From assembly GCA_016217935.1 (NCBI GenBank), contig JACRFJ010000010.1:1-60095 (forward strand): 60,095 nucleotides of DNA, written 5' to 3'. Below the pieces are notes generated by a model. It worked only from the letters and a program-made list of their open reading frames with translations. It did no database searches and had not been told where the DNA came from. Made by a program: the position numbers and the translations under genes. Shown piece by piece: positions 4,971-46,953 of the stretch (its first letter is position 1; each line of letters opens with the position of its first letter). This DNA comes from Candidatus Kaiserbacteria bacterium (GTDB taxonomy: Bacteria > Patescibacteriota > Minisyncoccia > Phycocordibacterales > UBA2100).

Positions 4971-4976
4971 TAGAAT
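4971..4976 (+). promoter_or_regulatory. -10-like box TAGAAT, 7 nt upstream of the second in-frame ATG of pilB (4984)
   Basis: Reads gcggTAGAATgatcgagATG. The box overlaps the first ATG (4975), so a transcript from it would begin at about 4983-4984, making it leaderless. Confidence 0.3.
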
Positions 4977-17131: not shown

Positions 17132-17821
17132 TCAGCGCGCGAGTTCGCACGAACTCACTCCCTGACTCTGCGCCAATCGAGTGCAATTTGATGCATTCGT
17201 CATGCATTGATAGCGTCCGGGTGTGGCCCCTCCTTGGAAACAATAGTAGCCGGGTATCGGGGTGGGATTGATCGTCTGTACAAAATCCGTCGGATTTTGC
17301 GTCGTGTCCTGTAAGTATTGATTAAGCAGTTGTTGATCAGCAGTTTGCGACGGAGCCTGCTTTGCGTTCCTGAGAATGTTTAGCTTTAGAATATCCGGAT
17401 TGATCTGGTTGAGGATGATCCAAATGCTCAAAAGCAAGAGAACGCCAAGGACCACATCACCAATGATTTCTTTTGCTTTGCTTTTATGACTCCACATATC
17501 GTTCCCCATATAGAGGTACCCCGCCCACGCGAGCCGCAATACCGCGAGTATCGCACCGACAGATATTGCCGTTTTGAAAGCGCTGTTGAAGAAGTTCGCG
17601 AGCGCGTTCGCATCGCTCGGCGTTGGCGGTGTACCGAATAGTTTACTGAAATTGGCGTCAGAGAGTGCGACGAACCCATCGAGTTGCTGGGACTGGATCT
17701 GTTGTGGCGTGAGACTCTCGTCGCCGCTGAGACCTTGCCCATTCGCGACGAATGGCACGAGCATGAAAGATACAAGTGCACAAAGTATAGAGAGAGTGAC
17801 CAGTTGGGGAATACGCACCAT
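17132..17821 (-). CDS. VirB2/TrbC-like pilin-type membrane protein with extra Cys-rich C-terminal domain
   Basis: Has a signal peptide (MVRIPQLVTLSILCALVSFMLVPFVANG) and two TM helices (AISVGAILAVLRLAWAGYLY ... VVLGVLLLLSIWIILNQI), the hairpin layout of T4SS pilins. A roughly 90-aa tail with 4 Cys follows. It is the last gene of the operon. Confidence 0.6.
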   Translation of the reverse strand: MVRIPQLVTLSILCALVSFMLVPFVANGQGLSGDESLTPQQIQSQQLDGFVALSDANFSKLFGTPPTPSDANALANFFNSAFKTAISVGAILAVLRLAWAGYLYMGNDMWSHKSKAKEIIGDVVLGVLLLLSIWIILNQINPDILKLNILRNAKQAPSQTADQQLLNQYLQDTTQNPTDFVQTINPTPIPGYYCFQGGATPGRYQCMTNASNCTRLAQSQGVSSCELAR

Positions 17822-17823
17822 AG

Positions 17824-19047
17824 TTATTGTGATGCAATCCGGAGCATCCAGAGCGATTGGTCCGCCGCATTTTCAAATGCGATGTACGAGCTACTCGCAT
17901 CAATCGCAAGATTCTCAATATCGAGCGCGAGCGTTGTATCGGTCACAAAGAATTTCTCGGCCGTCCCTTTCGTCGCATCAATACGCCACAGCGCATCCGT
18001 CGTATGCAATCGCCCCTCATACCGCGCCTTCAAATATTCTCGGCCGAAGAGTACTTGTGGTACCGCGCAGTACGCGATGAGTTCCTTGCCACGAGACCAC
18101 ACACACTTATCCGCCGCTGTTTTTATGTCGAGATATTTCGGTGTGCTATCTGTTTTCGCTCGCGCGAACAGTGCGACCGCATCCCCACTTGAACTTCCAT
18201 AGAGGACCGCAGGCGCTCCACTCTTGGGAAGTACGGTAAGTCCAGGCACATCACTCACGAGCTCCCGTAGTACTCCCTGTGTGTCGAGAGTGTATGCAAA
18301 CCCAGCTACTCCGTCGGTTGCACCTTGCGCGACAACAAACCTCCCATCTTCGAGAGCGAACGCTCGCCAGGAGCGGAGTGGAGACGAAAAGATTTTCCTT
18401 TGTTTCTCGCCGCGCCAATTTGCTGTGGCACCTACGACACCTCCTCCTGGATCTTTGACAAGAAAGAAGAGGGTATTTCCGTGCGACGAGATCGAGACAA
18501 TGTTTTGTGGAAGATATGAGCCTTTGAGGAGCGATGCGCTTGAGGTTGCAGTGGGTGATTTGGAAGGGAATTCACTCGCGAGCGTGGTTATCGTTTCTCC
18601 TTCGAGAGAGCGTAGCACCACACCGCCCTCCCCTACCAACGCGTCATAGATCTTCGGGAAGAGCGTGTTCGTACGACGATCGACCGCGCTCGTGTCAGGG
18701 CTTGCATCGAGCATATTTCCAGTCGATCGCTCAATAAATATGATCCGCGACGAGGTCGCAGCAAAACCAAAACCTGCGACGGGAGCTTTGCTCACGTGCC
18801 AGAGTCGCGGTGCACGCTTCCCACTCGACGTCGCGGTGTCAGGATTGGTGAGCTCGGTAACAATATGTTGGTACGTGCTCCCCGTCGAGTTGCCAAAAGT
18901 GGCACTCTCACTTCCGCGCGCAGCATCCTGCGCTTGTGTTTGAGCACCCTCTTGTTTGAGGAAAAAATACCACCCCGCGAGACCGCCGATGATGACGACA
19001 ATGAGCGCCGCGAGAGCAAACTGCAGTACGTGCGTGAGTGGTCGCAT
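17824..19047 (-). CDS. membrane-anchored extracytoplasmic protein, function unknown (beta-rich, possibly propeller-like)
   Basis: Has an N-terminal TM helix (LQFALAALIVVIIGGLAGWYFF) and then about 370 aa of beta-strand-like sequence. It is separated by 2-3 nt from both neighbouring genes. Confidence 0.7.
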   Translation of the reverse strand: MRPLTHVLQFALAALIVVIIGGLAGWYFFLKQEGAQTQAQDAARGSESATFGNSTGSTYQHIVTELTNPDTATSSGKRAPRLWHVSKAPVAGFGFAATSSRIIFIERSTGNMLDASPDTSAVDRRTNTLFPKIYDALVGEGGVVLRSLEGETITTLASEFPSKSPTATSSASLLKGSYLPQNIVSISSHGNTLFFLVKDPGGGVVGATANWRGEKQRKIFSSPLRSWRAFALEDGRFVVAQGATDGVAGFAYTLDTQGVLRELVSDVPGLTVLPKSGAPAVLYGSSSGDAVALFARAKTDSTPKYLDIKTAADKCVWSRGKELIAYCAVPQVLFGREYLKARYEGRLHTTDALWRIDATKGTAEKFFVTDTTLALDIENLAIDASSSYIAFENAADQSLWMLRIASQ

Positions 19048-19050
19048 GGT

Positions 19051-20064
19051 TTAAAGAGTATTCGTGAATGGGCTTGTGCCCCCGCTCCCATTCAATCCGA
19101 AGATCATATTCCAGATGCCGGACGCCTCGAAGAACACATTGCGAGTGTGCGTCACGGTAAGTGAGACGCTTGCGAGTCCTGTGGATTTTTCCGCGTTGAT
19201 GGTGAGTACGTTCGGCCGACGCTTTTCAGCTGATACCGGGGTGCGGTTTACTTCCCATTCGTATGAAAGCTCTTGCGCAGTCGCACTGTGCGCTGGTGCA
19301 AAGTACGGTAGCGCGACGAATGTGGCCTCCGTGTTTTGGATGAGGTTGGATGTGGTGAGTGCTCGGTGGTACAAGATTCCAAAGAGCGGGCTCTCCTCGT
19401 AGAGAAATAATTCCGGCGTTCGCGCATCGATTCGTACACTGCCCTCTCCCGTCACAGCTGTATCTGCTGTCGCTACCTGTACCGAAACGACGCTCACGTC
19501 CGAGAAAAAGGACGAATCGATCGTCGCGCTTGATTTACCCCGACCCGATTGGAATGCGAGCGTCGTGCCGTTGTGTTTCCATGTATACGTCAGTTGTGTT
19601 GGATCAATCTCGGAACCACTTTTGTATAGGTGCGGTACCGCTTCGATCCGTATCTGTGCCCCCGCACTTGGAAGTGCGCGCCCACGGTAAAAGGGCGGCG
19701 TGTATGTGTCCCCCTCCCAGAGCATGTCGACTCTCGATGGAACGATAAGTGCTTCCGCATGCACGTCGCCAGAATCGCTCTCTGCTGTTATTTCTATTTT
19801 TTCTCCGAGGGCGCCACCGACTATTTCGAGCCGGGTCGCGCCGACTCCTTCGGTGAGGAGTGTCCCGTTTTTTCGCCACGTGATCGTGCTGTTTCCAAGA
19901 TCATGGGAGATGCTCGTGAGCGTGAGTTCGATGCGCTCGTTCGGTTTTGGATATGCAGGCGAGACTCGTATGGAATCTGTGCCACCGAGGCCGGGAATAT
20001 CAAATTGCGCAGATACGGTGATTGGTACGAGGAAAAGCACCAGTGCGGACACGAGGTACTTCAT
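19051..20064 (-). CDS. secreted protein with three Ig/PKD-like repeats, function unknown
   Basis: Has a signal peptide (MKYLVSALVLFLVPITVSA). Three roughly 90-aa repeats each contain a (T/S)(I/Y)xW..N motif: TITWRKNGT, TYTWKHNGT and SYEWEVNRT. Its start overlaps the VirB4 stop by 4 nt. Confidence 0.7.
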   Translation of the reverse strand: MKYLVSALVLFLVPITVSAQFDIPGLGGTDSIRVSPAYPKPNERIELTLTSISHDLGNSTITWRKNGTLLTEGVGATRLEIVGGALGEKIEITAESDSGDVHAEALIVPSRVDMLWEGDTYTPPFYRGRALPSAGAQIRIEAVPHLYKSGSEIDPTQLTYTWKHNGTTLAFQSGRGKSSATIDSSFFSDVSVVSVQVATADTAVTGEGSVRIDARTPELFLYEESPLFGILYHRALTTSNLIQNTEATFVALPYFAPAHSATAQELSYEWEVNRTPVSAEKRRPNVLTINAEKSTGLASVSLTVTHTRNVFFEASGIWNMIFGLNGSGGTSPFTNTL

Positions 20065-22100
20065 ACAACTCCCGGAGTTGCGCGCGGCTGAGCTGCGACA
20101 GTTGGAGCGGCCGACGTGCTCGGAGTCGCGGCAACTGTGAGCGCAGTTGCGAGAGGAGCAGATGGTAGAGGGGCAGCGGCGGGTGCCGTTAGTGAGGGTG
20201 CGGCCGAGGGAGTCGGAAGAGTTCGTTCCGCTGGTTTCGGGGAGGGTGGGTGCAGCGTCTCGCGCCTATCCGCTGCTTCCGGTTCGGTATTCGCGAGTTC
20301 CTGCTTTGCTTTTTTGATTGCGAGAATCTGGGATGGATCAGACGTAATGATTTGATCCTCGGTATATGAGGCAATCACCTTGATCGCAACGTGCTTGAGA
20401 CCGGCGAAGAAGATTCCTTCGCCCACATCGCTCTCGAGGAGCAGGTACTTCTCTTCGTCGGAGAGTTTGAATGTCTGCTGCACGAGGTCAACCGACGTTG
20501 GGGATTGTCGGAGCAGCAGTTGTATCGATGAGTTTGTGATCATCGGGATGCCGTAGGGAGAATTGAGAAAGTCGGAGACGTCCTGTGTGATAGTCGAGAT
20601 CCCGAGATAGTATTTACGGCCGCGTTTTGCGATGCCGAAGAGGAAAGACGCAGTATCTTCAGATCGCATCATCCACCACGCTTCGTCGATAACAAGCAGC
20701 CGCTTGCGCAACTCCTTGCGCACCATATTCCAAATGTGGTGCGTGATGATGTACATCGCCACCGGCTTCAAGTCGTCCTCCATATCGCGCACCGAGAACA
20801 CAACGAGCTTTTTGTTCATGTCCACGTTCGTCGGACGATTCATAAAACCGGACCACGTGCCCTTCGTATACTTCGAAAGGCGCTGCACGAGACTCTCCGA
20901 TCCTTCCATGCCGGAGAGGACCAGTTCGAAATCGGAGAGGAGTGGAGGCTCGACTGCAGCAAAGTTGGCGTCTGGGGTAATATCCTTCAGCGCGTAGGTT
21001 TCTGTGATTGCTTTGTCGATAATGGCATCTTCTTCTGGAGTCAGTCCGCCGAGCATGATACGGAAGAGCCCTACGAGGGTGATGATATTGCTGCGGAGTA
21101 CGTCTGATGGGTTCTCGTCTTCGCGTGGAATCGGGAGGTCGAATGGGTTGATGTGGTGCTCGGAAGAGAGCGAAATGTTGAAATATCGACCGCCGACCGT
21201 TTCTGCCAAGTATTCATACTCTCGCTCCGGGTCGATCACAATCACTTCCGTGTCGAACATGAGCGAGCGCAAAATTTCCAATTTCGTTGTGTACGATTTG
21301 CCGGCACCGGATTTTGCAAAAGTCACTGAGTTGTAGTTTTCGAGTGAGAATCGGTCGAAGAGGATGAGCGACGAATTGTGGCGATTGATGCCGTAGAGAA
21401 TGCCTCTGTCCGAGGTAAGATCAAACGAGATGAACGGGAAAATCGATGAGAGAGGAGCGGAATTCAGTTTCGTGTGCACGTCGAGCTCATCGGTTGCAAG
21501 CGGGAGCACGGATCTGAATCCCTGCTCTTGCTGGAAGAGTGCGGGTCGAATGTAGACAAGGCGTGACTCAAGAATGGAACGCACCTCACTCTCCACCTTG
21601 TCGATTTCTTCGCGGGATGAGCCGTAGAGGGTAAGGTAGAGTCCGACGTCAAAAATCCGCTCTTGCGCTTGTTGGAGAGAGTCGCGTAGCTGTTCGAGGT
21701 CGGAGTAGGCGGTATCGAGCATCGGATCGCGAACCATACCCTTCTCTTCGCGCGTTGAAATTTGACTCTGAACCTCGGCGACTTTCTTCTGAAACTTGCG
21801 GAGCATTTCGTTGGTGTCCATTGGATGGATGAAGATCGAAATGTCGAGTACTTTGTCCATGTTAATGATTGGTGCGAACCACCCCGTCGTAAGGAAGCGG
21901 GGGTATGAAATCACGAAGAATGTGCGCGCGATTTTTTCACCCAGGTCGAGCTCGTGCGAGCTGATTTTGAGGGCGTGCGGCGCAATGACATCCTGCAAGT
22001 TGAGCACACCAGTCTGGTAAATCTCTTCAGGCAGGACCGGCAACACCTGCGGTGCAAGATCTTTTTTCTTGCCAAACGGGAGAAAATCAGCGAGTGCCAT
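20061..22100 (-). CDS. VirB4/TrbE/PrgJ-family type IV secretion ATPase
   Basis: Carries Walker A FAKSGAGKSYTT and Walker B KRLLVIDEAWWMM, plus ISTITQDVSDF. The N-terminal domain matches the ISYPRFLTTGWF pattern. The last ~90 aa form a Pro/Ala-rich tail. Confidence 0.85.
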   Translation of the reverse strand: MALADFLPFGKKKDLAPQVLPVLPEEIYQTGVLNLQDVIAPHALKISSHELDLGEKIARTFFVISYPRFLTTGWFAPIINMDKVLDISIFIHPMDTNEMLRKFQKKVAEVQSQISTREEKGMVRDPMLDTAYSDLEQLRDSLQQAQERIFDVGLYLTLYGSSREEIDKVESEVRSILESRLVYIRPALFQQEQGFRSVLPLATDELDVHTKLNSAPLSSIFPFISFDLTSDRGILYGINRHNSSLILFDRFSLENYNSVTFAKSGAGKSYTTKLEILRSLMFDTEVIVIDPEREYEYLAETVGGRYFNISLSSEHHINPFDLPIPREDENPSDVLRSNIITLVGLFRIMLGGLTPEEDAIIDKAITETYALKDITPDANFAAVEPPLLSDFELVLSGMEGSESLVQRLSKYTKGTWSGFMNRPTNVDMNKKLVVFSVRDMEDDLKPVAMYIITHHIWNMVRKELRKRLLVIDEAWWMMRSEDTASFLFGIAKRGRKYYLGISTITQDVSDFLNSPYGIPMITNSSIQLLLRQSPTSVDLVQQTFKLSDEEKYLLLESDVGEGIFFAGLKHVAIKVIASYTEDQIITSDPSQILAIKKAKQELANTEPEAADRRETLHPPSPKPAERTLPTPSAAPSLTAPAAAPLPSAPLATALTVAATPSTSAAPTVAAQPRATPGVV

Positions 22101-22103
22101 AGA

Positions 22104-22772
22104 TTATTTTTCTGCTGCGCCCGCGAGCGGCATCGGCTTTCCTTCTTCGCCAGGGTTGAACATTTTGTAGAGAAGCTCGATTGCCTCTTCAGTGCCCAAC
22201 TGCACCGTGCGTACACCGGTGCGCACCAAACCTTGCTGCACGATTGCGATTCGCTGCTCGAGCTGCGTTACCTGCTCCTCGAACGTCCGATTTTGTTCTT
22301 CGGCGTTTACTTTTTTCTTGCCAAAGGGGAGGAGGGCACTCGCCCCGCCCTTGGTCGAAAGCGTCGCGGGTGAATACGGCACGACGACAAAGAAATTTTT
22401 CGTCATGATGTTTGCCGCCTCGGTAAAGCTTTTGATAAATTCGATGTACTCTCGAATTTGGATACGCATCAGGTCATCGAGCTGCTCTTTGTATGCGGCT
22501 TCGAGAGTCGCCACGTACGGTCGGATATCGAGCATGCGCGACTGTACGAAAATTTGGACTGAGAAATCGAGCGAGTTGAGAAAATTTTGAAACTGGATGA
22601 TGAAGGCAGTCTGTTCGTCTTCAGATTTGAGCGCAAAGTTGAGTGACGACGCGAGGAGCACGGCGCGGAGCCCTCCGTCTTTCAGCCGCACCACGCCATC
22701 GCGCACTTCAGAAATCGGTACGAACTCCTGCGTCGATCGAGTGTTGGAACGCGTAGTTTCAGTGCCGGGCAT
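22104..22772 (-). CDS. stand-alone VirB4 N-terminal-domain-like protein
   Basis: TQEFVPISEVRDGVVRLKDGGLRAVLLASSLNFALKSEDEQ resembles the N-terminus of Gram-positive VirB4/TraC proteins. It has no P-loop. It shares an LPFGKKK motif, and 20/21 nt at the DNA level, with the N-terminus of the adjacent ATPase. Confidence 0.6.
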   Translation of the reverse strand: MPGTETTRSNTRSTQEFVPISEVRDGVVRLKDGGLRAVLLASSLNFALKSEDEQTAFIIQFQNFLNSLDFSVQIFVQSRMLDIRPYVATLEAAYKEQLDDLMRIQIREYIEFIKSFTEAANIMTKNFFVVVPYSPATLSTKGGASALLPFGKKKVNAEEQNRTFEEQVTQLEQRIAIVQQGLVRTGVRTVQLGTEEAIELLYKMFNPGEEGKPMPLAGAAEK

Positions 22773-22775
22773 AGC

Positions 22776-23273
22776 CTATATACGAGCTTCTTCTGCGGTG
22801 TGAATTGTGACCAGATCTTCGGCAGTGCGCTTCACGTGTCGCTCGTCGTCGTTGGCCACACCCGCGGCGATACGCTCTTTGATGTCGAGCGACCACGCGA
22901 GTTCGTGTAATTTTGAATCCGAGAGTCGCGGGATGTACACCTCCCCTTCCTCTGCAGGTAGGGCTGCTTTCCTGGTCTCTACCGTCGCTTTTTTATATGC
23001 GTTATTCCATAAGTAGAGCTTGGAGCGCACTCCATAGTAGAACGCGTGCTCTATCGCGACGATAAATGGTCTGCCGTTGTACTGTGCGAACGCGAGCGCG
23101 ACCGCCAAGGCGCCGACGAGCGCGATGAAAGGTCCTGCGAGAAGGAGCGGCAAGAGACGCCACAACATGTAAGCAATGCCCGCGCCGCCGCCGAGAAACA
23201 CGAACTGTTTGAACGTCAGCGGTCCGAAGATTTTGTCCTCAACCTCAATGAACTGTGGTACCTGAAATTGCAT
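22776..23273 (-). CDS. PrgI/VirB3-like small membrane protein
   Basis: Has the PrgI-family-type start MQFQVPQFIEVEDKIFGPLTFKQFVFL followed by two TM helices. It sits directly upstream of the VirB4-like genes. Confidence 0.7.
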   Translation of the reverse strand: MQFQVPQFIEVEDKIFGPLTFKQFVFLGGGAGIAYMLWRLLPLLLAGPFIALVGALAVALAFAQYNGRPFIVAIEHAFYYGVRSKLYLWNNAYKKATVETRKAALPAEEGEVYIPRLSDSKLHELAWSLDIKERIAAGVANDDERHVKRTAEDLVTIHTAEEARI

Positions 23274-23280
23274 AGAGAAA

Positions 23281-23985
23281 TTATAACAGTGTTGTGAGAC
23301 TCCCAGGTATCGTTATGCCGCTTTTGTTGAAGTCTAAAAGGATTTTCATAAGCGCATCAGCGGAATGGAGCGAAGAGATGTCCGCTGGGAGCGATCCTTT
23401 TGAGAGGATGCGCGATTCTGGACGTTCTGCACCTGCGTAGTCGAGTAAACTTGAGTATTTGTATGAAGAAAGAAAGCGAGACGCATTATCAATGTTTTCT
23501 ATCCCAACCTGCTCCCAATCCGTGAATTGGAGAGCAAGCGGGTTCAGATGTATGTAGGCCCACAGCCATCGAAAATAGTCGTCGTTCTCTACATGTTGTG
23601 AGCGAAATGGTCGTGTAAATAGAGGCCCGCTGCGTTCGTATTTTGTATTGAAGAACATAGAGTATGCAGTCATGAGCTTTAACATAAATCTTGAGGTTCC
23701 CCCGGCTGCCTTTTCGCGCACTACTAAGTGAAAGTGATTCGGCATAAGTGCAAAAACGAGCAAATCAACGAGCGACTCACCGTCACTTACCCTGAGCAAG
23801 GGTTCCCCTTGCTCAGATTTACGGAGAAGATTGTCGATCCTGACGGGCTTTTTCCTGTTGCACGCTAAAAGAAGCAGCAGAAAGCGCTTATTGTCAGCTT
23901 CAGACATAAAGATCTGCCGCTTCTCTACCCCGCGTGCGTAGAGATGATAATAGTTCGTTTCCACGAATGGCACCTTGCGCTCCAT
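23281..23985 (-). CDS. Y1 HUH transposase (IS200/IS605 TnpA-like / REP-associated RAYT-like)
   Basis: Carries the HUH motif LMPNHFHLVV and the catalytic Tyr motif WAYIHLNPL. The likely start is MERKVPFVETNYYHLYARG (ATG 23985), although the ORF opens at 24063. The gene is visibly lower in GC than the flanking operon. Confidence 0.85.
   Translation of the reverse strand: MERKVPFVETNYYHLYARGVEKRQIFMSEADNKRFLLLLLACNRKKPVRIDNLLRKSEQGEPLLRVSDGESLVDLLVFALMPNHFHLVVREKAAGGTSRFMLKLMTAYSMFFNTKYERSGPLFTRPFRSQHVENDDYFRWLWAYIHLNPLALQFTDWEQVGIENIDNASRFLSSYKYSSLLDYAGAERPESRILSKGSLPADISSLHSADALMKILLDFNKSGITIPGSLTTLL
23792..23816. repeat. 25-bp hairpin repeat CTGAGCAAGGG-TTC-CCCTTGCTCAG (copy B, inside the transposase ORF)
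   Basis: Exact reverse complement of the core of copy A. It is translated as SEQGEPLLR within the Y1 transposase. Confidence 0.95.
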
Positions 23986-24000
23986 CTTCAGAGAATAGCA

Positions 24001-24033
24001 AACTCTGAGCAAGGGGAACCCTTGCTCAGAGTT
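24001..24033. repeat. 33-bp hairpin repeat AACTCTGAGCAAGGG-GAA-CCCTTGCTCAGAGTT (copy A, 5' of the transposase start)
   Basis: Perfect 15-bp stem, read directly from the sequence. Confidence 0.95.
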
Positions 24034-24056
24034 AGGGTGTTGATAAGGATTTCTCA

Positions 24057-24082
24057 ATTGCAAACTAGAATTGCAAACTAGA
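24057..24082. repeat. tandem 13-bp duplication ATTGCAAACTAGA x2 spanning the stop codon of the 24078 gene
   Basis: Read directly from the sequence. A related AATTGCA..TAGA string occurs at the other side of the transposase gene (23265-23277), overlapping the PrgI-like start codon. Confidence 0.85.
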
Positions 24083-24638
24083 CGAGCTGTTCTCTATACG
24101 GATCACCGTCGATCGTTTTTCGCGCGTGACTTGCGACATTCTCATACCCTTCGACTGGTACGCGGATCGCTTTTCCTTCTGGTTTTGGCTGAGGTGGAGT
24201 TGCAGGGATAATCGCCGAAGCCTTGGGCACGTCCGAAGATGAAGATTGAGCGAGAATCTGTGTACGGGCGCTTTCAACCGAGGTCTGTGCTGTCGCTTGC
24301 GCTTCTGGATGATCGAGTTCGCGCTCCAGTTCCGCGCGAACTGGCTCGAATACGACTTTCGATATATCACCTGCGAGTGCCTGCGCGATCTCGGCCGTAA
24401 TTCCGACCTCGCTCGCGATGTTTTTTGCAAGATCTTCCGCACGCTGAAAACCCAAGAGCGCGAGCATCACTTCATTTTCAAGAGCGCCCCACTGATCGAG
24501 GTGCAGCTTGTGGGTCTCAGCGAGTTCGCGGAGTCGTTTTTCGACATCGGCGGATGTGATCGCGTTCTGTACGACGAGCGGGAGCTGTTTAAACCGGTCG
24601 TCGAGCTTTTCTTGAAGTTTTATCGTGTCTGGATCCAT
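24078..24638 (-). CDS. acidic cytoplasmic hypothetical protein
   Basis: 186 aa with no TM helix. The N-terminal half is helical and the tail is Pro-rich, ending in DGDPYREQLV. It is tightly packed inside the operon. Confidence 0.7.
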   Translation of the reverse strand: MDPDTIKLQEKLDDRFKQLPLVVQNAITSADVEKRLRELAETHKLHLDQWGALENEVMLALLGFQRAEDLAKNIASEVGITAEIAQALAGDISKVVFEPVRAELERELDHPEAQATAQTSVESARTQILAQSSSSDVPKASAIIPATPPQPKPEGKAIRVPVEGYENVASHARKTIDGDPYREQLV

Positions 24639-24644
24639 ATAAAT

Positions 24645-27167
24645 TTAGTGCACCGTACCGCCGCTTCCACCCGTGGTTGACGATGCAGTCGATGTTGAAG
24701 ATGGTGTGGACGTCTGCACAGGAGCGCTTCCGGATTCTTTATTTATTTCTTGCCAAGCTTTTTTCATCTGCGAGATCGCGCCCTTGTCGTCCTTCATTTT
24801 CTTTCGAGTGGCTTCTGCAACATCTTTGTTGATACCGAGTGTACGTCCGAAGATGCCCGCTTCATGTGCGGCAACGATATCAGCAACTGCGCCGGCACTT
24901 TCATTGACTGCCTTTACTGCGTCAGTTTTCATTTGCTCCAACTTCTGCTGCGTCTCTGTCTTGTATGCAGTAAGATTTTGTTTCGCATCTTCGTGCTGCA
25001 TCCTCGATTCTGCAGCAGAGAGTTCGAGTGCCGTGCCATCTGCTTTGCGGATTGTGTATTGCTTCGTGTCGAGTGAAGCGAGCTTACCTTTGGCGTCGGC
25101 GAGCTTTTCCTGCGCTTCGCGAATGCGATTCTCCTGTTCGTCGAGTCCACGCTGGTGCTGGATTTCAGCCTCACGCCTACGCGCGGGGTCTGCACTCGCC
25201 ATCTCAGCTTTGTACTGATTTTCAATTACAACTTTCCTGCTGTCAGCGTCTCTCAGTGTCGCCTCGTGACGCTTGGTTTCCGTTTCAAGCGGCTTGGTCT
25301 CCACCTCACTGGCGCTTCTCACTAATTTGATATTTTCCTCTGCCGACTTTTGAAGCGTTTCGCGCGTGAGACGTCCTTCTTCGCGTTGCGCCTGCACTAC
25401 CCTTTCGGCTGTCTCGCGCGCCTCCCTGATCTGCTCCCTCGACGGTTGTCCTGCTTTTCCGGCGATTTCCGCCGCGTGTTTGGCGAGATCTTTGACTTGG
25501 TCTGCATAGCCCTTTGTTTCTTTTCCGGACTTGCCGATGTCGAGGCCAAGCTGTTTGCCGATCACTTGAACTGCTGCGACATCCCCGAGATTGTATTTGC
25601 TGTTGGCAAATTTACCTGCTTTCGCGGCCTGGAGCGATTTTTCTCCGGAAAGTTTTTCGAGACGTTCAGCCTGGCGAGATTTCTCAGCGGCAAGCGCTTC
25701 CTCGCCCCTGAAAGTGTGACCGAGCGCTTCAAGCCGTGCTTGCCCTGCCTTGCCACGGATTTTTTCCGACTCTTTCTCCAAACCTCTCTGTTGGCCATAG
25801 AAGAGCTTCCCAGCAGTTTGGCGCAAAACTGGCGCTGCGATTCCTGCACCGAGCCGGAGCGGGAGCGATGTGAGGAAATTGAATCCGCCAATTGTCGAGG
25901 AGAGACTGCTCGCGACTTTCAGCGATGCAAAGAGGAGGCCGATCACAATCACGTACGAGAACATTGCGTTCCAATTCGATACATTCTTGGCATCCCCGAT
26001 GAGTCCCCCGAGCGTGCCACCTTGCGCGTGCGGCATCGCATTTGCAAGCGTAAGCGTCGCCCACAGGAGCATCATAAGGAGTGGGGCGAAGACCGTTGTT
26101 TTTATGAGCGCAGTCCACCAGGCATTCCATCCAAATTTTTGTCCCGCTCCTTCAGTCGATAGCTGGGGCACGAGAAATGTCGCAAACGCGAGCGATGATG
26201 TGATCATCAAAAATACGAGGTAGATTGCACGGCTCACCAGGAGCAAGCAGCCGTACAAAATGACACCCGCTGCTACAAAGAGGAGCGTTCCCGCGAAGAG
26301 GCCGTGCATGAGTGCGACCCATCCGCCACCGTCGGGGTTGTTTCCGATGCCCTCCAGCTTTTTCCGCACGTCGAGAACGCTCGTGACGCCGAGCGCTTTT
26401 ACGAATGCACCGGCGATTCCGTCTTGCGGGAGCGCGAATGAAGCATCCGCCGCCACTTGGTTTGAGGCGAGCTTTGGTCCCGCGGGGTCGACGATCTGCT
26501 GTCCGAGGCTCGCTCTATAGAATTGAAACGCGAGGAAGTTCGATCCGTCGATGATCACTTTCGTAAAGAGTAGACTAAAGTTGATAAGTACAGCAACAAT
26601 GAGAACGCGAGCTATCAATTTCTTCTGACCGAATTTCTCGAGGCCGAGAATGATAGAAATCGCGATAAACGCGAAGAATCCGATAATCAGAATATTCGAA
26701 ATGTCACGGAAAACGGTCCACACGGTATTAATCCCTGTCTGCACACTCGTCGTCAGAAACCCATTTGCGCTATCCCCAAACGCGACAATGGTGTAATACG
26801 TGAGCCAGTTAAAGAGAAGTGTCACAAGCTCCAAGAGGTATGCAGTGAGTGCAACAAGCATCGTGCCAATCGTGACGCTGATGACGCGTCCCCAACAACG
26901 CGTGTCGAAGAAGTCGACGATCCGATCGCACTGCGTATTGCCGAGGCCGTTCAGCGCATTGCTCTTCTCCAGCTCTACTTTGGTGAGACATCGACCCTCA
27001 CCGCTCGGCTCAACCCGATAGGTGCTTCCATCTGTGCAGTCGGCTTGACTGGTAGGAGGCTCCGCCGCGTGCACGGGCGACGGTGTTGCTGTCACGAATG
27101 CGAAGCAGAGTGCGATAACAGCAGAGCCGAGGAGCATCTTCTTCGTTACATCTGTACAGTACTGCAT
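24645..27167 (-). CDS. VirB6/TrbL-like polytopic membrane protein with ~370-aa C-terminal coiled coil
   Basis: Has a signal/anchor plus a Cys-containing ectodomain, then about 7-8 TM helices (for example ILIIGFFAFIAISIILGL and LLFVAAGVILYGCLLLV), then a long Lys/Glu/Ala-rich helical region. A possible alternative start is M11 (27137). Confidence 0.65.
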   Translation of the reverse strand: MQYCTDVTKKMLLGSAVIALCFAFVTATPSPVHAAEPPTSQADCTDGSTYRVEPSGEGRCLTKVELEKSNALNGLGNTQCDRIVDFFDTRCWGRVISVTIGTMLVALTAYLLELVTLLFNWLTYYTIVAFGDSANGFLTTSVQTGINTVWTVFRDISNILIIGFFAFIAISIILGLEKFGQKKLIARVLIVAVLINFSLLFTKVIIDGSNFLAFQFYRASLGQQIVDPAGPKLASNQVAADASFALPQDGIAGAFVKALGVTSVLDVRKKLEGIGNNPDGGGWVALMHGLFAGTLLFVAAGVILYGCLLLVSRAIYLVFLMITSSLAFATFLVPQLSTEGAGQKFGWNAWWTALIKTTVFAPLLMMLLWATLTLANAMPHAQGGTLGGLIGDAKNVSNWNAMFSYVIVIGLLFASLKVASSLSSTIGGFNFLTSLPLRLGAGIAAPVLRQTAGKLFYGQQRGLEKESEKIRGKAGQARLEALGHTFRGEEALAAEKSRQAERLEKLSGEKSLQAAKAGKFANSKYNLGDVAAVQVIGKQLGLDIGKSGKETKGYADQVKDLAKHAAEIAGKAGQPSREQIREARETAERVVQAQREEGRLTRETLQKSAEENIKLVRSASEVETKPLETETKRHEATLRDADSRKVVIENQYKAEMASADPARRREAEIQHQRGLDEQENRIREAQEKLADAKGKLASLDTKQYTIRKADGTALELSAAESRMQHEDAKQNLTAYKTETQQKLEQMKTDAVKAVNESAGAVADIVAAHEAGIFGRTLGINKDVAEATRKKMKDDKGAISQMKKAWQEINKESGSAPVQTSTPSSTSTASSTTGGSGGTVH

Positions 27168-27171
27168 ATCG

Positions 27172-28770
27172 TTATCGCCACGCCCGATCCCATCGATCGA
27201 TGACGGCTGCGTTGTTCACATTGCACCATCCCTTGGTCGCGTCTGTCGAATCTCCCCAGAGCTTCACCGTATCCGACACGAGCGTATCCATCGACTGCTT
27301 CACCGCAGATTGTGACTGCTGGGCTTGCTGCACATCGGCCGAATTGTGCAGGCGCCTTTGAGAAATCAGCATATCGATCTGCTGAAGCGCGAGTCGTTGC
27401 GCGGTGATCGATGCGGTGTTGGTGACACCTGCGATGAGTTGGCCTATAAGTGTGAGCGCATTTTGTGAGACCGTGATGTTGTTTGCGGTCGTTTCAGCGA
27501 GTGGACGGATCTGGTCGTCAACGATCGGTTGCGAGAATTGTGTCGACGTTGCGATTTTGAGTTGGTTGCCACTCTTTCCGGAACATTTGCCGCCGGTCGG
27601 AGTTGAGGCACAGACATTTTGAATGATGAGATCCCAACATTTGCTCTCGGCGCCACGAAGTGACGAAATTGCGCCTGCAAGTGTCGCAGCGATCGCATTC
27701 ATTGCAGATCCGTACACTCTCTCGATCTCTTGTGCGCCAAGGAGCGTCTGTAGTGCTGCGTTTGCCGCCGCGTTGCGAAGTCCCGTGGAAGATTCTTGCG
27801 CCAATCGATCGAGGTACGAGAGCTGTCCCGACGAAGCTTGCGTCAAGCCGAGGAGGCCTTGCGTGTCGGCAACCGCCTGGTTGGCGATCCCCGCATAGAG
27901 GGCACCCACCATCTGTCCGATGTCGTTGGCATTGCGCAGCTGGGTGTACCCAGACTGCAGCGAAAGAATTTCATTCTGGAGGATGATGGACCCCGGCGTA
28001 TTGACCACCGGATTTCCGTACGCATCCAAGGTTTCCCGCGCGTATGTTCCTTGGTACCAGCCGAGTTTCAAGAGCATCTCATCAACTCTGTTCTGTCCGA
28101 TGTCTCCGATTACTTGTCTTCCTGATTCGTATGCGTAGAGCGGATCGCACGCTGGATTTTGTACCGCCTCAAGCGCGTCAATAATCGATCCCTTCGGACG
28201 GCCACTGTAGAGACCCGCAAGATCAGTATACGCACATGAGAGTACGGTGTTTCCGCGTCGCGTGTTTGTTACGTATCCTTTCGCGACAGCTCGTTCGACC
28301 GTACCGCGAATTGTCGGGTTGACTGTCGCGAGCACGCCGCTCTGGAGCCCGTTCAATACACCGGCATCTCTCGCTTCGAGTTGTTCTTTTCCACTTTGGT
28401 AAAAGAGTGGTTTGCCATCGCGACCCGTCGTGAAAAGCAACTGCATTTGCCGATCATATGCAGAGGCAGCGGCTTCTTTCTGGCGATTGAGCACCTCGCG
28501 CAAAATACACTCTTTGTATACGAGGATGCCGGTGTTCAGCGTCACCGCTGCATCGGAAACGGGTACATAGACTCCCTGGATTGCGACTTGCGAGCCGACA
28601 CTTTGCGAATACGAATTATTGCGGTTGCACCCGAAGATACCATCGCGCTGGAACGAGTAGTTCACCGTCTGAACGCCTGCCTGTGGCGCCTGAGTTGTTT
28701 GTGCGCCCGCAAGCAGCGGCGCGATGAATGCGATGGCGAACGATGCAAAGATGGCTCGAGGTGCACTCAT
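27172..28770 (-). CDS. secreted Cys-containing protein (532 aa), function unknown
   Basis: Has a signal peptide (MSAPRAIFASFAIAFIAPLLAGAQ), about 10 Cys and no other TM helix. It has an ATGA overlap with the upstream gene. Confidence 0.7.
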   Translation of the reverse strand: MSAPRAIFASFAIAFIAPLLAGAQTTQAPQAGVQTVNYSFQRDGIFGCNRNNSYSQSVGSQVAIQGVYVPVSDAAVTLNTGILVYKECILREVLNRQKEAAASAYDRQMQLLFTTGRDGKPLFYQSGKEQLEARDAGVLNGLQSGVLATVNPTIRGTVERAVAKGYVTNTRRGNTVLSCAYTDLAGLYSGRPKGSIIDALEAVQNPACDPLYAYESGRQVIGDIGQNRVDEMLLKLGWYQGTYARETLDAYGNPVVNTPGSIILQNEILSLQSGYTQLRNANDIGQMVGALYAGIANQAVADTQGLLGLTQASSGQLSYLDRLAQESSTGLRNAAANAALQTLLGAQEIERVYGSAMNAIAATLAGAISSLRGAESKCWDLIIQNVCASTPTGGKCSGKSGNQLKIATSTQFSQPIVDDQIRPLAETTANNITVSQNALTLIGQLIAGVTNTASITAQRLALQQIDMLISQRRLHNSADVQQAQQSQSAVKQSMDTLVSDTVKLWGDSTDATKGWCNVNNAAVIDRWDRAWR

Positions 28771-29588
28771 GGTCTTTTTTGCCCGTAGTACGATGCGAGC
28801 CCATCGTACGAGGTGTACATATCGGCTTCTGCTTTATTGTATGAACGCAGGAGTGCTGCGATGGCAAACGGATCATCCGGATGCGTCGCTATCGCGTCGA
28901 GCGTTGCCCCAAATTCCTGCGTCGCGTTGAGGATCGCCACATGGTAATTCACTGCATCTTTAGGCACTGTCATGAGCGCGAGATTTTCAACTGCCTTGTG
29001 ATAGTGCACGGATGCGTGTTGGAGTCGCGCGAGGTTGTCGGTGTCGCTTGTTTCGATGTAGCGTGCGTAGATGTCGAGTTCGTTTTCGGTGTTTTCAAGT
29101 AGCGGTGCGAGCGCTTCTCGTAAATCAGCGCGATAGGTGAGCATGCGATCAAAGGAAGTGTCGTTGTCAGTTTTGATATCGATTACTCCATACGTTTTGT
29201 AATTCAGAATCGCCTTCACGTTCGGCGCGATTGACTCCGCAGCTTTTGCGAACGCTTCTGACGAATACGTACCACTCCCTGCGAGTCCGGCAAAGGTGCC
29301 GATCAACTGTCCGATCACTGACGGGCCGATGAGTGCGATCGGGTCGCCGGCGGAGGCTGCGTTGGGATCACTCGTCGTCGCGAGGCCAAGCAGTGTCATC
29401 TCCTGCTGCCAGTTAGCACCCGGTGTTGGAGAAGTTCTTTCTGATACTGAGGCGTGTGCAGTTACGGTGCGTGCCTGCGTGAGTGAGACGATGCGCCAGG
29501 CGCTCATTCCGAGGAGCGTGAGAAAAGCACAGAGAGCCGTCATGCCAATAGGAGAAGACTTGCGTATGAGAGAGCGCAGTTTTTCCAC
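28767..29588 (-). CDS. membrane-anchored helical protein, function unknown
   Basis: Has an N-terminal TM helix (MTALCAFLTLLGMSAW). Its C-terminal helical domain is distantly similar to that of the next gene upstream. The ORF opens with GTG 29588, and ATG 29543 is an alternative. Confidence 0.65.
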   Translation of the reverse strand: MEKLRSLIRKSSPIGMTALCAFLTLLGMSAWRIVSLTQARTVTAHASVSERTSPTPGANWQQEMTLLGLATTSDPNAASAGDPIALIGPSVIGQLIGTFAGLAGSGTYSSEAFAKAAESIAPNVKAILNYKTYGVIDIKTDNDTSFDRMLTYRADLREALAPLLENTENELDIYARYIETSDTDNLARLQHASVHYHKAVENLALMTVPKDAVNYHVAILNATQEFGATLDAIATHPDDPFAIAALLRSYNKAEADMYTSYDGLASYYGQKRP

Positions 29589-29653
29589 AATAGAAGTATA
29601 ACCTGCGAAAGTGCTCGCAGGCCGAAATATCCAGTTTTTCTGCGGATCCGAGT

Positions 29654-30535
29654 CTAAAAACTTCCCTGCGTGAATGTAAACACACTACCAGAGTCCTCGG
29701 AGCTGAACCGGATACCACGCGTCGAGAAAAGCAGTGCGAGTGCGACATATTTTTTGGTAAGCATCTCTGCGGCGGAGTTGTATGCGGTTATCGCGGCGAT
29801 GAACGCCTGGTCACCTTCCGTGTCCGGGATCTTGGTGAGTGCCGCTCCCGCGTCTCTGTACCCTTTGGCAAGTGCCGTGTGCGCACTCTGAACTCCTGCA
29901 GGCACGGGCTCGAGGCCTTGCATACTCTCACCAATGCTTGAAAGCGAGCGTCCCAGGTGTCGAACGGCATCGCCTTTCGCTTTGTCTTCTCGGTCTTCAA
30001 CCTGCCCTTTCAAGACCTGGATCATGGAAGTATTTTGCGAGTCGAACGCTTGGATGAACGTGCCGACATTATTGCCGTAGTCGAAGAGCTCCTGCTCACT
30101 CTCGCTTCTGGTGCGTACTGAAGAGGCGCTGAGGAGCCCCGTTGGAATGAGTGAGTACGGATCGAGGGTTGTAACGCCGTTTCCGCTTACGCGCGAGTTC
30201 TCCACACTCTTCTTCGAGGTACCGGAGAGTTGGGCAAGAAAATCTGAGAAGTTGAATCCTTGATTGCCACTCGTCGCAATCGTAATACTGGATGTCCCCG
30301 GCTGCGTATACGGCCCGGCTGTGCTCGTGTTTGATCTATCGGGTTGCGGGATTTCGGTTGTATTTCTTGGGATGTATGCAGATGGATCAAAGAGCGTCGT
30401 CCCTCCCCCCCACGCGCTCGATTGCGATGCCGGAGTTGCGAGCGATCGTCGCTGGATCATAATCGTTCCGATCAAGATCAAGATGAGTGCGCCAATCACT
30501 GCAGCAATGTATGGATGCGCCTTGATTCTCCCCAT
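29654..30535 (-). CDS. membrane-anchored helical protein, function unknown (first gene of operon)
   Basis: Has an N-terminal TM helix (YIAAVIGALILILIGTIMI), a Ser/Thr/Pro-rich linker and a helical C-terminal domain. Confidence 0.7.
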   Translation of the reverse strand: MGRIKAHPYIAAVIGALILILIGTIMIQRRSLATPASQSSAWGGGTTLFDPSAYIPRNTTEIPQPDRSNTSTAGPYTQPGTSSITIATSGNQGFNFSDFLAQLSGTSKKSVENSRVSGNGVTTLDPYSLIPTGLLSASSVRTRSESEQELFDYGNNVGTFIQAFDSQNTSMIQVLKGQVEDREDKAKGDAVRHLGRSLSSIGESMQGLEPVPAGVQSAHTALAKGYRDAGAALTKIPDTEGDQAFIAAITAYNSAAEMLTKKYVALALLFSTRGIRFSSEDSGSVFTFTQGSF

Positions 30536-30541
30536 GTATAA

Positions 30542-30556
30542 ATCATAGCGTATAAT
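30542..30556. promoter_or_regulatory. back-to-back -10 boxes in a 27-bp divergent spacer
   Basis: On the plus strand, TATAAT (30551-30556) lies 6 nt before ATG 30563. On the minus strand, TATGAT (30542-30547) lies 6 nt before ATG 30535. No recognisable -35 or SD is present on either side. Confidence 0.4.
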
Positions 30557-30562
30557 TTATGC

Positions 30563-30874
30563 ATGCGTGTCGCGACTCTCACTGTGATTGCATCTCTTCT
30601 CTTTCCCGTAGCCGTATTCGCGTTTCCGTTCGGTGGTCAGGTGGGTCAAGTGGTCAACTGTTACAACCAAGCGATCTGGGCTCGCGTGGGGCCACCGATT
30701 GGCGGCGACTACGTCTGGACCCCATCGACACAAACGTACCGTTTTGGTGCACCCTCGCATCCGGGACAGTGGCTCCTCGGTCTCGCGTCGGTCCCCTATT
30801 ACTGCTTGGTTTCCGTTATACCGATCATCATCTATCCGGGCATCACGATTCAAATGATGGGCAGTTCTCAATAG
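30563..30874 (+). CDS. small secreted/anchored protein (103 aa), function unknown
   Basis: Has a signal peptide (MRVATLTVIASLLFPVAVFA), then FPFGGQVGQVVNCYN...GQWLLGL...YYC and a hydrophobic C-terminus. It is divergent from the operon and followed by a strong terminator. Confidence 0.6.
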   Translation: MRVATLTVIASLLFPVAVFAFPFGGQVGQVVNCYNQAIWARVGPPIGGDYVWTPSTQTYRFGAPSHPGQWLLGLASVPYYCLVSVIPIIIYPGITIQMMGSSQ

Positions 30875-31041: not shown

Positions 31042-31803
31042 TCACTGCGCGAGCTTTTTCCATTGTTCGAGCGAGACGTCTTCTGCGCGAGCTTTTTCAG
31101 CAATGCCTGCAGCCTCAAGATGCTGCTGAACGGTCGCCCTGTCGAATAGAGCAGAAAGATTGTTGGCGACAAATTTCCGTCTCGATGCAAACCCCGCTCG
31201 TACAACAGCGAAGAAACGCTCTTCGGAAATTTCTCTAAAGAAACTCTTCGCGATATCGGCTATCAGCAGAATTGCCGAATCCACTTTTGGTGGTGGAGAA
31301 AAGTGCGTGCGCGAAACCTTCTCGACAATCTTTGGTATCCCGTACGCTTTCACCGAAATCGAGAGGATGCTTTCTTTTTTGCTCACAATCCGCTGAGCCA
31401 CTTCTTTCTGTACGAGGAGCGCCATTGCACGCGGCTGTGCATCGGTCGAAAGAAACTGACGAATGATCTCGCCGGTAATGTAGTACGGAATATTGGCTGC
31501 AACTACATACGATCCTGCGTGAAGTCCGAGCTGCTCCGGAGTGATATCTCTGATATCCGCGGAGATGATCTGTAATCTTCCTGAATCGAGTTCAGTGGCG
31601 AAGGTTTCGCGCAGCTTCGCTACGAGCGTCTCGTCTTTTTCGATTGCGATCACGGAGCTAAGCGCGAGGAGTTCGCGCGTGAGGACGCCTTTACCCGGAC
31701 CGATCTCGACGATTGTCTCTCCTGCTCGAGGTGCCGCCGCATGCGCGAGTTTGCGCGCCGCCCACGTGTGCTTCAAAAAATGTTGACCAAGGCGGGAACC
31801 CAT
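31042..31803 (-). CDS. rsmA: 16S rRNA (adenine1518/1519-N6)-dimethyltransferase RsmA/KsgA
   Basis: Carries LGQHFL, VEIGPGKGVLT (SAM site) and ANIPYYIT. The start is ATG 31803 (MGSRLGQHFL), although the ORF opens at TTG 31818. Confidence 0.9.
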   Translation of the reverse strand: MGSRLGQHFLKHTWAARKLAHAAAPRAGETIVEIGPGKGVLTRELLALSSVIAIEKDETLVAKLRETFATELDSGRLQIISADIRDITPEQLGLHAGSYVVAANIPYYITGEIIRQFLSTDAQPRAMALLVQKEVAQRIVSKKESILSISVKAYGIPKIVEKVSRTHFSPPPKVDSAILLIADIAKSFFREISEERFFAVVRAGFASRRKFVANNLSALFDRATVQQHLEAAGIAEKARAEDVSLEQWKKLAQ

Positions 31804-31870
31804 CGGGGCAAGTATCAAGGATCAGGTACCAAGTAGCAAGGAATCGGTGCGAACGTAATTCAATGGCCAG

Positions 31871-46945: not shown

Positions 46946-46953
46946 GAATACCT

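Follow-up and report, generated by a model that had tools for sequence, protein, structure and literature searches.

A cluster of 12 tightly packed, co-directional genes in a 60,095-nt stretch of the contig JACRFJ010000010.1 (assembly GCA_016217935.1) of a Candidatus Kaiserbacteria bacterium, referred to here as the window, is a chromosomal type IV secretion system (T4SS) or pilus cluster that adjoins the origin of replication in the Paceibacteria, within the Patescibacteria or candidate phyla radiation (CPR). The cluster is very probably the Paceibacteria version of the T4SS of the Patescibacteria clade, that is, a vertically inherited descendant of an MPF-FATA conjugation system, in which the DNA-processing module is no longer present and a VirB2-like pilin is encoded. 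The observation and its interpretation were essentially published between 2023 and 2025 (PMC10633639; PMC12102498; PMC12857230), and the locus is, in this sense, a rediscovery. The analysis shows the identities of the five parts that have homologues, the lack of transfer genes in the 60 kb, the fixed position of the locus, and the co-conservation of its accessory genes.

Four anchor proteins had been proposed in an earlier note, which was made from the sequence alone, and these are supported by profile searches, the matches of orthologues, and, in the case of VirB6, AlphaFold and Foldseek. They are PrgI/VirB3, a split VirB4 (a TrsD-like protein plus an ATPase), an extended VirB6, and a VirB2-like pilin. 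The comparison set contains one genome per species and provides 80 loci (L001–L080), which are the best VirB4 matches. Presence was counted by family hidden Markov model (HMM) and tblastn, and 56 of the loci have at least 9 kb upstream, while 66 have at least 5 kb downstream; these are the covered loci of the counts below.

The PrgI-like protein, which has the start motif MQFQVPQFIEVEDKIFGPLTFKQ quoted in the note and a hydrophobic hairpin at residues 33–67, reaches 42.2 bits against the Pfam family PrgI (PF12666; cut-off 27), and its gene was detected in 76 of the 80 loci, with a median identity of 49%. The GAGKS and LLVIDEAWWMM motifs reported for VirB4 are also present, and this protein scores 362 bits against the NCBIfam model conju_CD1110 (cut-off 325), with its residues 33–572 aligned to positions 185–733 of the 752 in the model, the first ~180 positions being missing; it matches the Pfam P-loop_TraG as well (E 5.6e-24). 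The TrsD-like protein, whose gene lies 3 nt upstream of virB4 and was detected in 78/80 loci (median identity 63%), aligns to the N-terminal parts of three VirB4 models, among them positions 2–118 of the same CD1110-type model and 98–233 of VirB4_plasma (E 4e-9), and to TrsD (E 7e-5), all of these matches being below the full-length cut-offs, as expected of a fragment. As the two products cover positions 2–118 and 185–733 of CD1110, which is most of a full-length VirB4, the protein is indeed encoded in two pieces, and the "split VirB4" is the TrsD homologue known from the literature, plus the ATPase gene.

Thousands of homologues of VirB4 are found in the databases, the best 120 of them with identities of 84–97% and, where named, from metagenome-assembled genomes (MAGs) of Kaiserbacteria, Paceibacterota, and Parcubacteria; the placement of the protein among the Patescibacteria is based on these nearest neighbours, and not on a tree. 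The protein ends in a low-complexity tail of ~75 aa, rich in Pro, Ala, and Thr (residues ~605–679; 20061–20290). Most of the homologues align over ~89–90% of the query, and in most loci the tblastn match stops near residue 600–610, which indicates that the tail is variable or absent in the relatives.

The VirB6-like protein is formed by a transmembrane (TM) domain with multiple hydrophobic segments (residues ~1–430) and by the added coiled coil which the note had described, here of ~400 aa (residues ~440–840), with a Ser/Thr-rich tail. Its family was found in 55 of the 56 covered loci, and among its positional orthologues the one Pfam family to be hit repeatedly is TrbL/VirB6 (6/45, best E 6e-5). 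The top PDB matches of an AlphaFold model of residues 1–480 (pLDDT 81, pTM 0.71) in Foldseek are TrwI/VirB6 of R388, with a probability of 1.00 for 8rt9_F and 8rtd_L (target-normalised TM 0.49–0.51), and 0.97 for 7o3v_F. When profiles are compared with the PDB, the C-terminal half matches coiled-coil proteins only, and such matches also dominate the profile of the family, in which TrwI is found at E 0.71. The support for the predicted VirB6 assignment is moderate, not strong. The pilin-like protein begins with a signal peptide, has two TM helices, and ends in an extension that varies between homologues and contains Cys, and 26 of its 28 positional orthologues match the family PF18895 (T4SS_pilin; best E 2.4e-10), while three match TrbC/VirB2.

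The second line of evidence is the position of the locus in the genomes of its relatives. The conserved order is uvrD-ksgA-(d103)-H293-H273-S532-VirB6-AC186-PrgI-TrsD-VirB4-IG337-B407-pilin, followed by jag-yidC-rnpA, and then dnaA-dnaN, where H293, H273, S532, AC186, IG337, and B407 designate accessory proteins, and d103 a small divergent neighbour. The order of ksgA, the T4SS, jag-yidC, and dnaA is identical in all 60 of the 60 species-level loci that cover the region, and VirB4 lies on the strand opposite to yidC, with dnaA beyond (VirB4(+)/yidC(-)/dnaA(+)), in the same 60/60. The ksgA gene is upstream, on the same strand, in 52/52 loci, and the order H273, S532, VirB6, AC186 is kept in 54/54. 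The accessory genes beside VirB4 are present in 54–55 of the 56 and 62–65 of the 66 covered loci, with the exception of H293 (38/56), and the unannotated genes, six to seven in number, form a core that is conserved jointly in the Paceibacteria locus.

The median identity to the window is 79% for VirB4 and 56% for DnaA, with VirB4 being higher in 58 of the 60 genomes, in a comparison in which the selection of the loci by VirB4 similarity somewhat inflates the VirB4 identity relative to that of DnaA; DnaN, YidC, KsgA, and Jag have identities of 40–48%. VirB4 is more conserved than DnaA, which is counted as a sign of strong selection, and its identity tracks that of DnaA (Spearman 0.55, p 6e-6). 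The GC content of the cluster is 0.534, and that of its flanks 0.526 and 0.530. By its fixed slot and order in the relatives, the locus is a vertically inherited chromosomal machine, and not an integrative and conjugative element (ICE). Many of the public MAG records that contain the locus (L001, L003, L004, L010, and others) are titled "uncultured Candidatus Saccharibacteria bacterium", a label that looks generic or wrong.

That the cluster belongs to an ordinary ICE, or to what remains of one, with the relaxase, the coupling protein, and the attachment sites lying outside the window, might be suspected from the score of VirB4, which is above the cut-off of a conjugation-ATPase model, from the PrgI and TrsD families, which were defined on conjugative plasmids, and from the transposase-family gene within the cluster. 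This reading is extremely unlikely, however, given that the chromosomal slot between ksgA and jag-yidC-rnpA-rpmH-dnaA is the same in every species-level genome compared, the GC content of the cluster equals that of the flanks, and the divergence of VirB4 tracks that of DnaA. The absence of the locus from sister genomes, which is expected of an ICE, was tested and failed, with the same site being occupied in all the covered relatives. Within the 60 kb, no relaxase (MOB), oriT, or domain of a type IV coupling protein (T4CP; VirD4/TcpA/FtsK-like) was found, and Pfam and NCBIfam searches of the 30 other open reading frames (ORFs) of the window returned neither a relaxase nor an ATPase of the VirD4/FtsK type, nor an integrase of the ICE type. 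The only tyrosine recombinase in the window is XerC/D-like (46837–47883), 16 kb from the cluster, and there is no tRNA at the edges of the cluster, the tRNAs of the window being found at 51.5–55.6 kb only, and no integrase or repeat border. In 3,035 Patescibacteria genomes, moreover, 109 relaxases were found, 15 of them near virB4 (PMC12102498). The conjugative element was rejected on synteny, GC content, and gene content, which agrees with the view of the earlier note that the cluster is chromosomally fixed, has no ICE borders, and is not a conventional conjugation module.

The transposase-like gene itself, of the Y1/HUH family, reaches 25.4 bits against the Pfam family Y1_Tnp (cut-off 23), and 32.9 bits against the NCBIfam model of the REP-associated tyrosine transposase (RAYT; cut-off 80, E 5e-8), the type to which it is closest, and has a GC content of 0.47, compared with 0.53 for the cluster. 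It occurs in two of the 80 related loci, at the AC186/PrgI junction in both (intact in L012, broken in L017), that is, in 3/81 loci when the window is included. The note had counted this gene as part of the operon, and it does lie there on the minus strand, as a sporadic RAYT-like insert that is not a component of the T4SS. The 92-nt spacer before its ATG (23985) contains the hairpin mentioned in the note, which is perfect, with a 15-bp stem and a 3-nt loop (24001–24033). The 23-nt core of this hairpin is a perfect palindrome, TGAGCAAGGGnnnCCCTTGCTCA, of which three copies are found in the 60 kb, against an expectation of 0 by chance: one upstream of the transposase-like gene (24006–24028), one within its coding sequence (23793–23815), where it is in frame and encodes EQGEPLL, and one after an unrelated gene (49499–49521). 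The spacer is a putative REP-like element, which would go with the inserted gene, and not with the T4SS.

The operon as a whole runs for 13.4 kb on the minus strand, from 30535 to 17132 in the ORF list (Table 1), and its 11 junctions measure, in order, 65, -4, 4, 6, 92, 7, 3, 3, -4, 3, and 2 nt. Nine of them fall between -4 and +7 nt, including the two 4-nt overlaps (28767–28770 and 20061–20064), and no further ORF of at least 20 aa fits in the gaps. The co-directional array and its two larger gaps, of 65 and 92 nt, are as previously described, while the counts of 13 minus-strand genes and of 12 junctions, ten at 2–13 nt or in ATGA overlaps, had included the plus-strand d103 as a thirteenth gene. 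A Kyte-Doolittle scan agrees with the topology labels given to the products (secreted, anchored, polytopic, or cytoplasmic acidic).

Table 1. Genes and other features of the T4SS locus, listed in the direction of transcription, with the divergent neighbour in the last line.
Feature	Coordinates	Strand	Length	Description
H293	29654-30535	-	293 aa	Bitopic; N-terminal TM helix, low-complexity linker, C-terminal domain all-helical by prediction
H273	28767-29588	-	273 aa	Bitopic, helical; paralogue of H293
S532	27172-28770	-	532 aa	Secreted, Cys-containing; predicted long helical bundle; directly upstream of the VirB6-like gene
Extended VirB6-like	24645-27167	-	840 aa	Polytopic membrane protein
AC186	24078-24638	-	186 aa	Acidic, cytoplasmic
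Spacer with palindrome	23986-24077		92 nt	REP-like element
Y1 transposase-like (RAYT/IS200-like)	23281-23985	-	234 aa	Length from ATG
PrgI/VirB3-like	22776-23273	-	165 aa	Membrane protein
TrsD-like	22104-22772	-	222 aa	Detached N-terminal part of VirB4
VirB4 ATPase	20061-22100	-	679 aa	MPF-FATA (CD1110) type
IG337	19051-20064	-	337 aa	Secreted; three Ig-like repeats
B407	17824-19047	-	407 aa	N-terminally anchored, beta-rich, extracytoplasmic
VirB2/TrbC-like T4SS pilin	17132-17821	-	229 aa	Last gene of the operon
d103	30563-30874	+	103 aa	Divergent; 27 bp from the operon start

When every product of the operon is searched against Pfam and NCBIfam, six remain unassigned. IG337, whose start overlaps the stop of VirB4 by 4 nt, has a signal-like N-terminal hydrophobic segment, followed by three repeats of ~100 aa that are marked by the invariant W63, W162, and W270, and in the PDB its family profile matches the Ig domains of Hoc from phage T4 (E 1e-4), while its match to the Pfam Ig_3 (E 2e-4) is below the cut-off; it is found in 65 of the 66 covered loci. 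B407 (64/66 loci) has one TM segment, at residues 1–32, and an invariant pair of cysteines, C315 and C327. In the PDB, its family profile has TolB beta-propellers as the only coherent top matches, which are weak (E 0.011), and the protein is probably a TolB-like beta-propeller.

The H273 and H293 proteins, present in 54/56 and 38/56 covered loci, respectively, with H293 always being upstream on the same strand (family HMM), each have a single TM helix, which in H293 is the hydrophobic segment of residues 4–32. Their families align in hhalign over ~130 C-terminal residues (96% probability, E 1.6e-9), and the two are paralogues, as the note had them. No match was found for H293 in Pfam or NCBIfam, nor for H273 in these databases or, by profile search, in the PDB sequences. 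No operon product has a Pfam, NCBIfam, or PDB-sequence match to a VirB8-like protein (PrgL/TraM) or a VirB1-like hydrolase, which, together with the lack of a relaxase and a VirD4-type ATPase in the 60 kb, is consistent with what the note had listed as missing. The bitopic candidates for the VirB8 position look, from their sequences, either all-helical in the conserved C-terminal domain (H273/H293) or TolB-like (B407), and not NTF2-like, and H273/H293 were rejected as analogues of VirB8 for this reason.

The S532 protein, which is encoded in 55 of the 56 covered loci, has a signal-like N-terminal hydrophobic segment and eight cysteines, six of which are invariant across 78 aligned homologues. 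All of its 271 homologues are annotated as "hypothetical", and the only Pfam domain among the 120 homologues listed is an fn3 that is added in a few of the longer ones. The AlphaFold model (mean pLDDT 79) predicts a bundle of very long helices, of up to 68 residues. Foldseek found no significant match to this model in the PDB (best E 0.27) or BFVD, with nothing below E 0.06 and all the TM-scores at ~0.1, and the family profile returned nothing credible from the PDB sequences. In the virB operon of Agrobacterium, virB5 is located directly upstream of virB6. The candidacy of S532 as a recognisable VirB5 homologue was dropped, given that no similarity to VirB5 was detected in its sequence or predicted fold, and only its position and helical nature remain.

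The AC186 protein (55/56 covered loci) has no hydrophobic segment and contains 31 D+E against 21 K+R residues. The alignment reveals a conserved N-terminal domain of ~110 aa, a variable Pro-rich linker, and a near-invariant C-terminal motif, DPYRE(P), with no match to a Pfam or NCBIfam family or, by profile search, to the PDB. The DPYRE motif occurs once in the window, at 24090–24104, and 66 times as a C-terminal tail in the loci, in 65 AC orthologues and in one ORF at the edge of a contig (L044, 1–315), which is probably a truncated AC. The motif is essentially confined to the AC186 orthologues, and its interpretation as a secretion signal common to other proteins was rejected; this tail could be a docking peptide.

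The divergent d103, the small secreted protein which the note had placed 27 bp from the operon, has a signal-like N-terminal hydrophobic segment, a second hydrophobic stretch at ~residues 70–100, and two cysteines, and matches no family in Pfam or NCBIfam. It is a lineage-restricted neighbour of the operon, found by tblastn between ksgA and H293 in 20 of the 80 loci, once in the opposite orientation (L011, 1423–1734). The 27-bp gap (30536–30562) implies that the promoter of the operon must either overlap d103 or lie further upstream. A scan for promoters and terminators across 13–32 kb was uninformative, with counts equal to the shuffled expectation.

Upstream of the operon, and co-directional with it on the minus strand, are ksgA (31042–31818) and a UvrD/PcrA helicase gene. 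On the other side, rpmH, rnpA, yidC, and jag occupy ~15.3–17.1 kb of the plus strand, and jag and the end of the operon converge, with their stop codons, at 17114 and 17132, being about 17–18 nt apart, while dnaN and dnaA (12483–15157, with dnaA at 13808–15157) lie beyond, on the minus strand. The cumulative GC skew has its minimum at ~11–13 kb, and an origin at dnaA is plausible; a scan for DnaA boxes recovered a few 9-mers with one mismatch around dnaA, and these do not fix the exact origin. If the origin is near dnaA, the transcription of the operon would be head-on to the rightward replication fork, which, as the earlier note had proposed, is consistent with the gene order and the GC skew, and the underlying arrangement is the conserved one described above. 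A search by terms found no mention of head-on or strand orientation in the text of PMC12102498.

The rest of the window contains housekeeping genes, which encode PolA, TsaE, a PilB-type ATPase, RuvABC-related proteins, PBP1, PurA, ComM, and PNPase, as well as the XerC/D-like recombinase, a CCA-adding enzyme, RNase Y, ClpP, and trigger factor. The PilB/GspE-type type IV pilus ATPase (4975–6675, plus strand) and the ComM-like protein (37098–38711, minus strand) indicate that, apart from the T4SS, the genome also has functions of a type IV pilus and others related to competence. On the opposite strand to the operon, and 3.5 kb upstream of it, a peptidoglycan endopeptidase with LysM and M23 domains is encoded (34097–35221, plus strand), and M23/LysM proteins have been named in the literature as possible substitutes for VirB1 in the Patescibacteria.

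The working of the machine can be proposed by homology with the R388 and pCF10-type systems, from which its order of assembly, the roles of the accessory proteins, and its substrate would be derived. The two-piece VirB4, formed by the TrsD-like N-terminal protein and the ATPase, would assemble at the membrane on PrgI/VirB3, while the extended VirB6-like protein would form the membrane channel and the base of a stalk, with its coiled-coil tail probably facing the cytoplasm, according to the positive-inside rule. VirB4 would then pull the two-TM pilin out of the membrane and feed a pilus or conduit. The S532, H273/H293, three-Ig IG337, and TolB-like B407 proteins may take the places of VirB5, VirB8, and the wall-crossing parts, with the DPYRE-tailed AC186 acting on the cytoplasmic side. 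The machine would most likely serve contact-dependent exchange between this ultrasmall bacterium and its host cell, rather than the conjugation of a plasmid or ICE. As a matter of judgement, the substrate and direction are divided between the export of proteins or effectors, or a pilus conduit to the host, with a likelihood that falls a little short of even; the import of host macromolecules, including DNA, which is a tentative possibility; a pilus used for adhesion only, which is quite improbable; and the export of DNA with an unrecognised relaxase, which is more improbable still.

A broader proposal, which is offered only tentatively, is that the accessory set forms a Paceibacteria-specific envelope or adaptor module that replaces VirB5, VirB8, and VirB1, and converts a conjugation motor into a pilus-tipped conduit, through which host material is taken or proteins are injected. 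Selection on this machine would be stronger than that on DnaA, and its head-on position by oriC would have a regulatory reason.

The import of DNA or nucleotides, in the manner of ComB or Ced, with the VirB2/3/4/6 core pulling in host or environmental DNA for an organism that is unable to make nucleotides, was raised as an idea in PMC11665869. A set of VirB2-, VirB3-, VirB4-, and VirB6-like parts with no relaxase or T4CP in the window fits ComB and Ced better than it fits conjugation, VirB4 has a weak local match to the CedB model (E 2.8e-8), and the VirB4 clade of the Patescibacteria is nested in MPF-FATA, a class that also holds archaeal VirB4 homologues (PMC12102498). The match to CedB spans only ~70 residues, however, in the ATPase core common to both proteins, no counterparts of ComB7-10 or CedA1/A2 were recognised, and the operon has no DNA-binding or DNA-processing component. 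Southlakia, in addition, can do without competence (ComEC) but not without the T4SS, and the two were not found to be linked (PMC12857230). On balance, the import of DNA as the function of the system is unlikely.

It is also conceivable that all that is left of the T4SS core is a pilus motor, which assembles a surface pilus or adhesin for attachment to the host, with no passage of substrate. The pilin gene is conserved at the end of the operon in 62 of the 66 covered loci, the Ig-repeat and beta-propeller proteins resemble surface or adhesion modules, and T4SS pilins are highly expressed in co-cultures of Paceibacterales, where they were read as adhesion-related, being among the most highly expressed unknown genes of these enrichments (PMC10936435). 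For attachment, however, such genomes have type IV pili as well, as the PilB-type ATPase of the window illustrates, and the conservation of VirB4 and of the coiled-coil VirB6 channel would seem to exceed the needs of a pilus motor, which makes this function quite unlikely.

A number of points weigh against the reading of the locus as a Patescibacteria-clade T4SS for exchange with the host. The VirB6-like protein of the window has no Pfam match of its own, the Foldseek E values for TrwI are 0.025–0.07, and not below 0.001, and the match of the window pilin to PF18895 (E 7e-4) is below the cut-off, while the inflation of the VirB4 identity affects the comparison with DnaA. The absence of a T4CP and relaxase holds for 60 kb, and most Patescibacteria genomes have VirD4-like genes at other sites (PMC12102498). 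The systems on which the assembly model is based have both VirB8- and VirB1-like proteins, neither of which was recognised in the operon, and the roles given to S532, H273/H293, IG337, B407, and AC186 were guessed from their topology and from where their genes lie. The role of the system has been called "completely unknown" in reviews (PMC11665869).

Few envelope machines have proved to be essential for the epibiotic way of life, and the Patescibacteria T4SS is one of these; it is presented as an open problem in a 2025 FEMS review (PMC12857230) and a PNAS perspective (PMC11665869). The window adds no new kind of system to this picture, and gives a clean, complete example from the Paceibacteria, in which 11 genes are conserved together, six without annotation, and provide concrete targets for structural and genetic work.

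Among the known systems, the R388 Trw and Agrobacterium VirB machines (MPF-T) share with the locus the VirB3-VirB4 pairing, a two-TM pilin of the VirB2 type, and, in the predicted model, a VirB6 TM-domain fold that matches TrwI, and a gene for a secreted helical protein is found directly upstream of virB6, where virB5 stands in the Agrobacterium operon. In contrast with these machines, the locus has no VirB7, VirB9, VirB10, VirB11, or VirB1, no similarity of its S532 to VirB5/TrwJ was detected in sequence or in fold, and its VirB6 includes the added coiled coil of ~400 aa. The ComB system of Helicobacter and the archaeal Ced system are similar in having a T4SS core with no relaxase or coupling protein, and in the weak local similarity of VirB4 to CedB, although no counterparts of ComB7-10 or CedA are recognised here, and in the one Patescibacterium that has been tested genetically, the T4SS is essential and competence is not.

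The MPF-FATA systems of Gram-positive bacteria (pCF10 Prg/Pcf, pGO1 Trs, and the CD1110 type of CTn2) share with the locus a VirB4 above the CD1110 cut-off, a PrgI-like VirB3, a VirB6-like channel protein, a TrsD-like protein, as in pGO1, and no outer-membrane core complex. The locus differs from these systems in the lack of a relaxase, a T4CP (PcfC/VirD4), and an oriT, and of a recognisable VirB8-like protein (PrgL/TraM), VirB1-like protein (PrgK), or PrgB-type adhesin, as well as in having a VirB2-like pilin, which they lack, and in being chromosomally fixed, rather than located on a mobile element.

The closest system is that of the Patescibacteria themselves. In Southlakia epibionticum, the T4SS (SEML1_0006-0019), which is essential for epibiotic growth, resembles the conjugative systems of Gram-positive bacteria and has pilins, with neither a coupling protein nor a relaxase being recognisable (Wang et al. 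2023, Cell; PMC10633639). In the survey of 3,035 Patescibacteria genomes by Quinonero-Coronel et al. (2025, Microb Genom; PMC12102498), VirB4 forms a monophyletic clade nested in MPF-FATA, TrsD is the most abundant partner of virB4, with PrgI/VirB3, VirB6, and VirB2-like pilins also nearby, there are almost no relaxases, and the T4CP homologues are usually far from virB4. In the Paceibacteria and other classes, virB4 is adjoined by dnaA, dnaN, rnpA, ksgA, and rpmH, and those neighbours without Pfam, NCBIfam, or TIGRFAM homology were left unannotated, in grey, in Fig. 6 of that study. The locus agrees with this clade (PMC12102498; PMC10633639) in its MPF-FATA-type VirB4 with adjacent TrsD, PrgI/VirB3, VirB6, and VirB2-like pilin genes, in the lack of a relaxase or coupling protein nearby, in its site by dnaA, dnaN, rnpA, rpmH, and ksgA, and in its monoderm style, with no VirB7, VirB9, or VirB10. 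It has a single pilin gene, in contrast with the six-gene pilin array of Southlakia, and differs further in that virB4 is not directly followed by a gene for a peptidase or lysozyme, the M23/LysM peptidase being 3.5 kb away on the opposite strand. It also differs from the published clade in the RAYT-like gene between AC186 and PrgI, and in its Paceibacteria-specific accessory set (S532, H273/H293, IG337, B407, and AC186). The additions to the literature are small, and consist of this accessory core, an S532 with no known fold match, the DPYRE tail, the division of VirB4 as seen in the CD1110 coverage, the conservation of VirB4 above that of DnaA, the invariant orientation toward the origin, and the sporadic RAYT-like insert.

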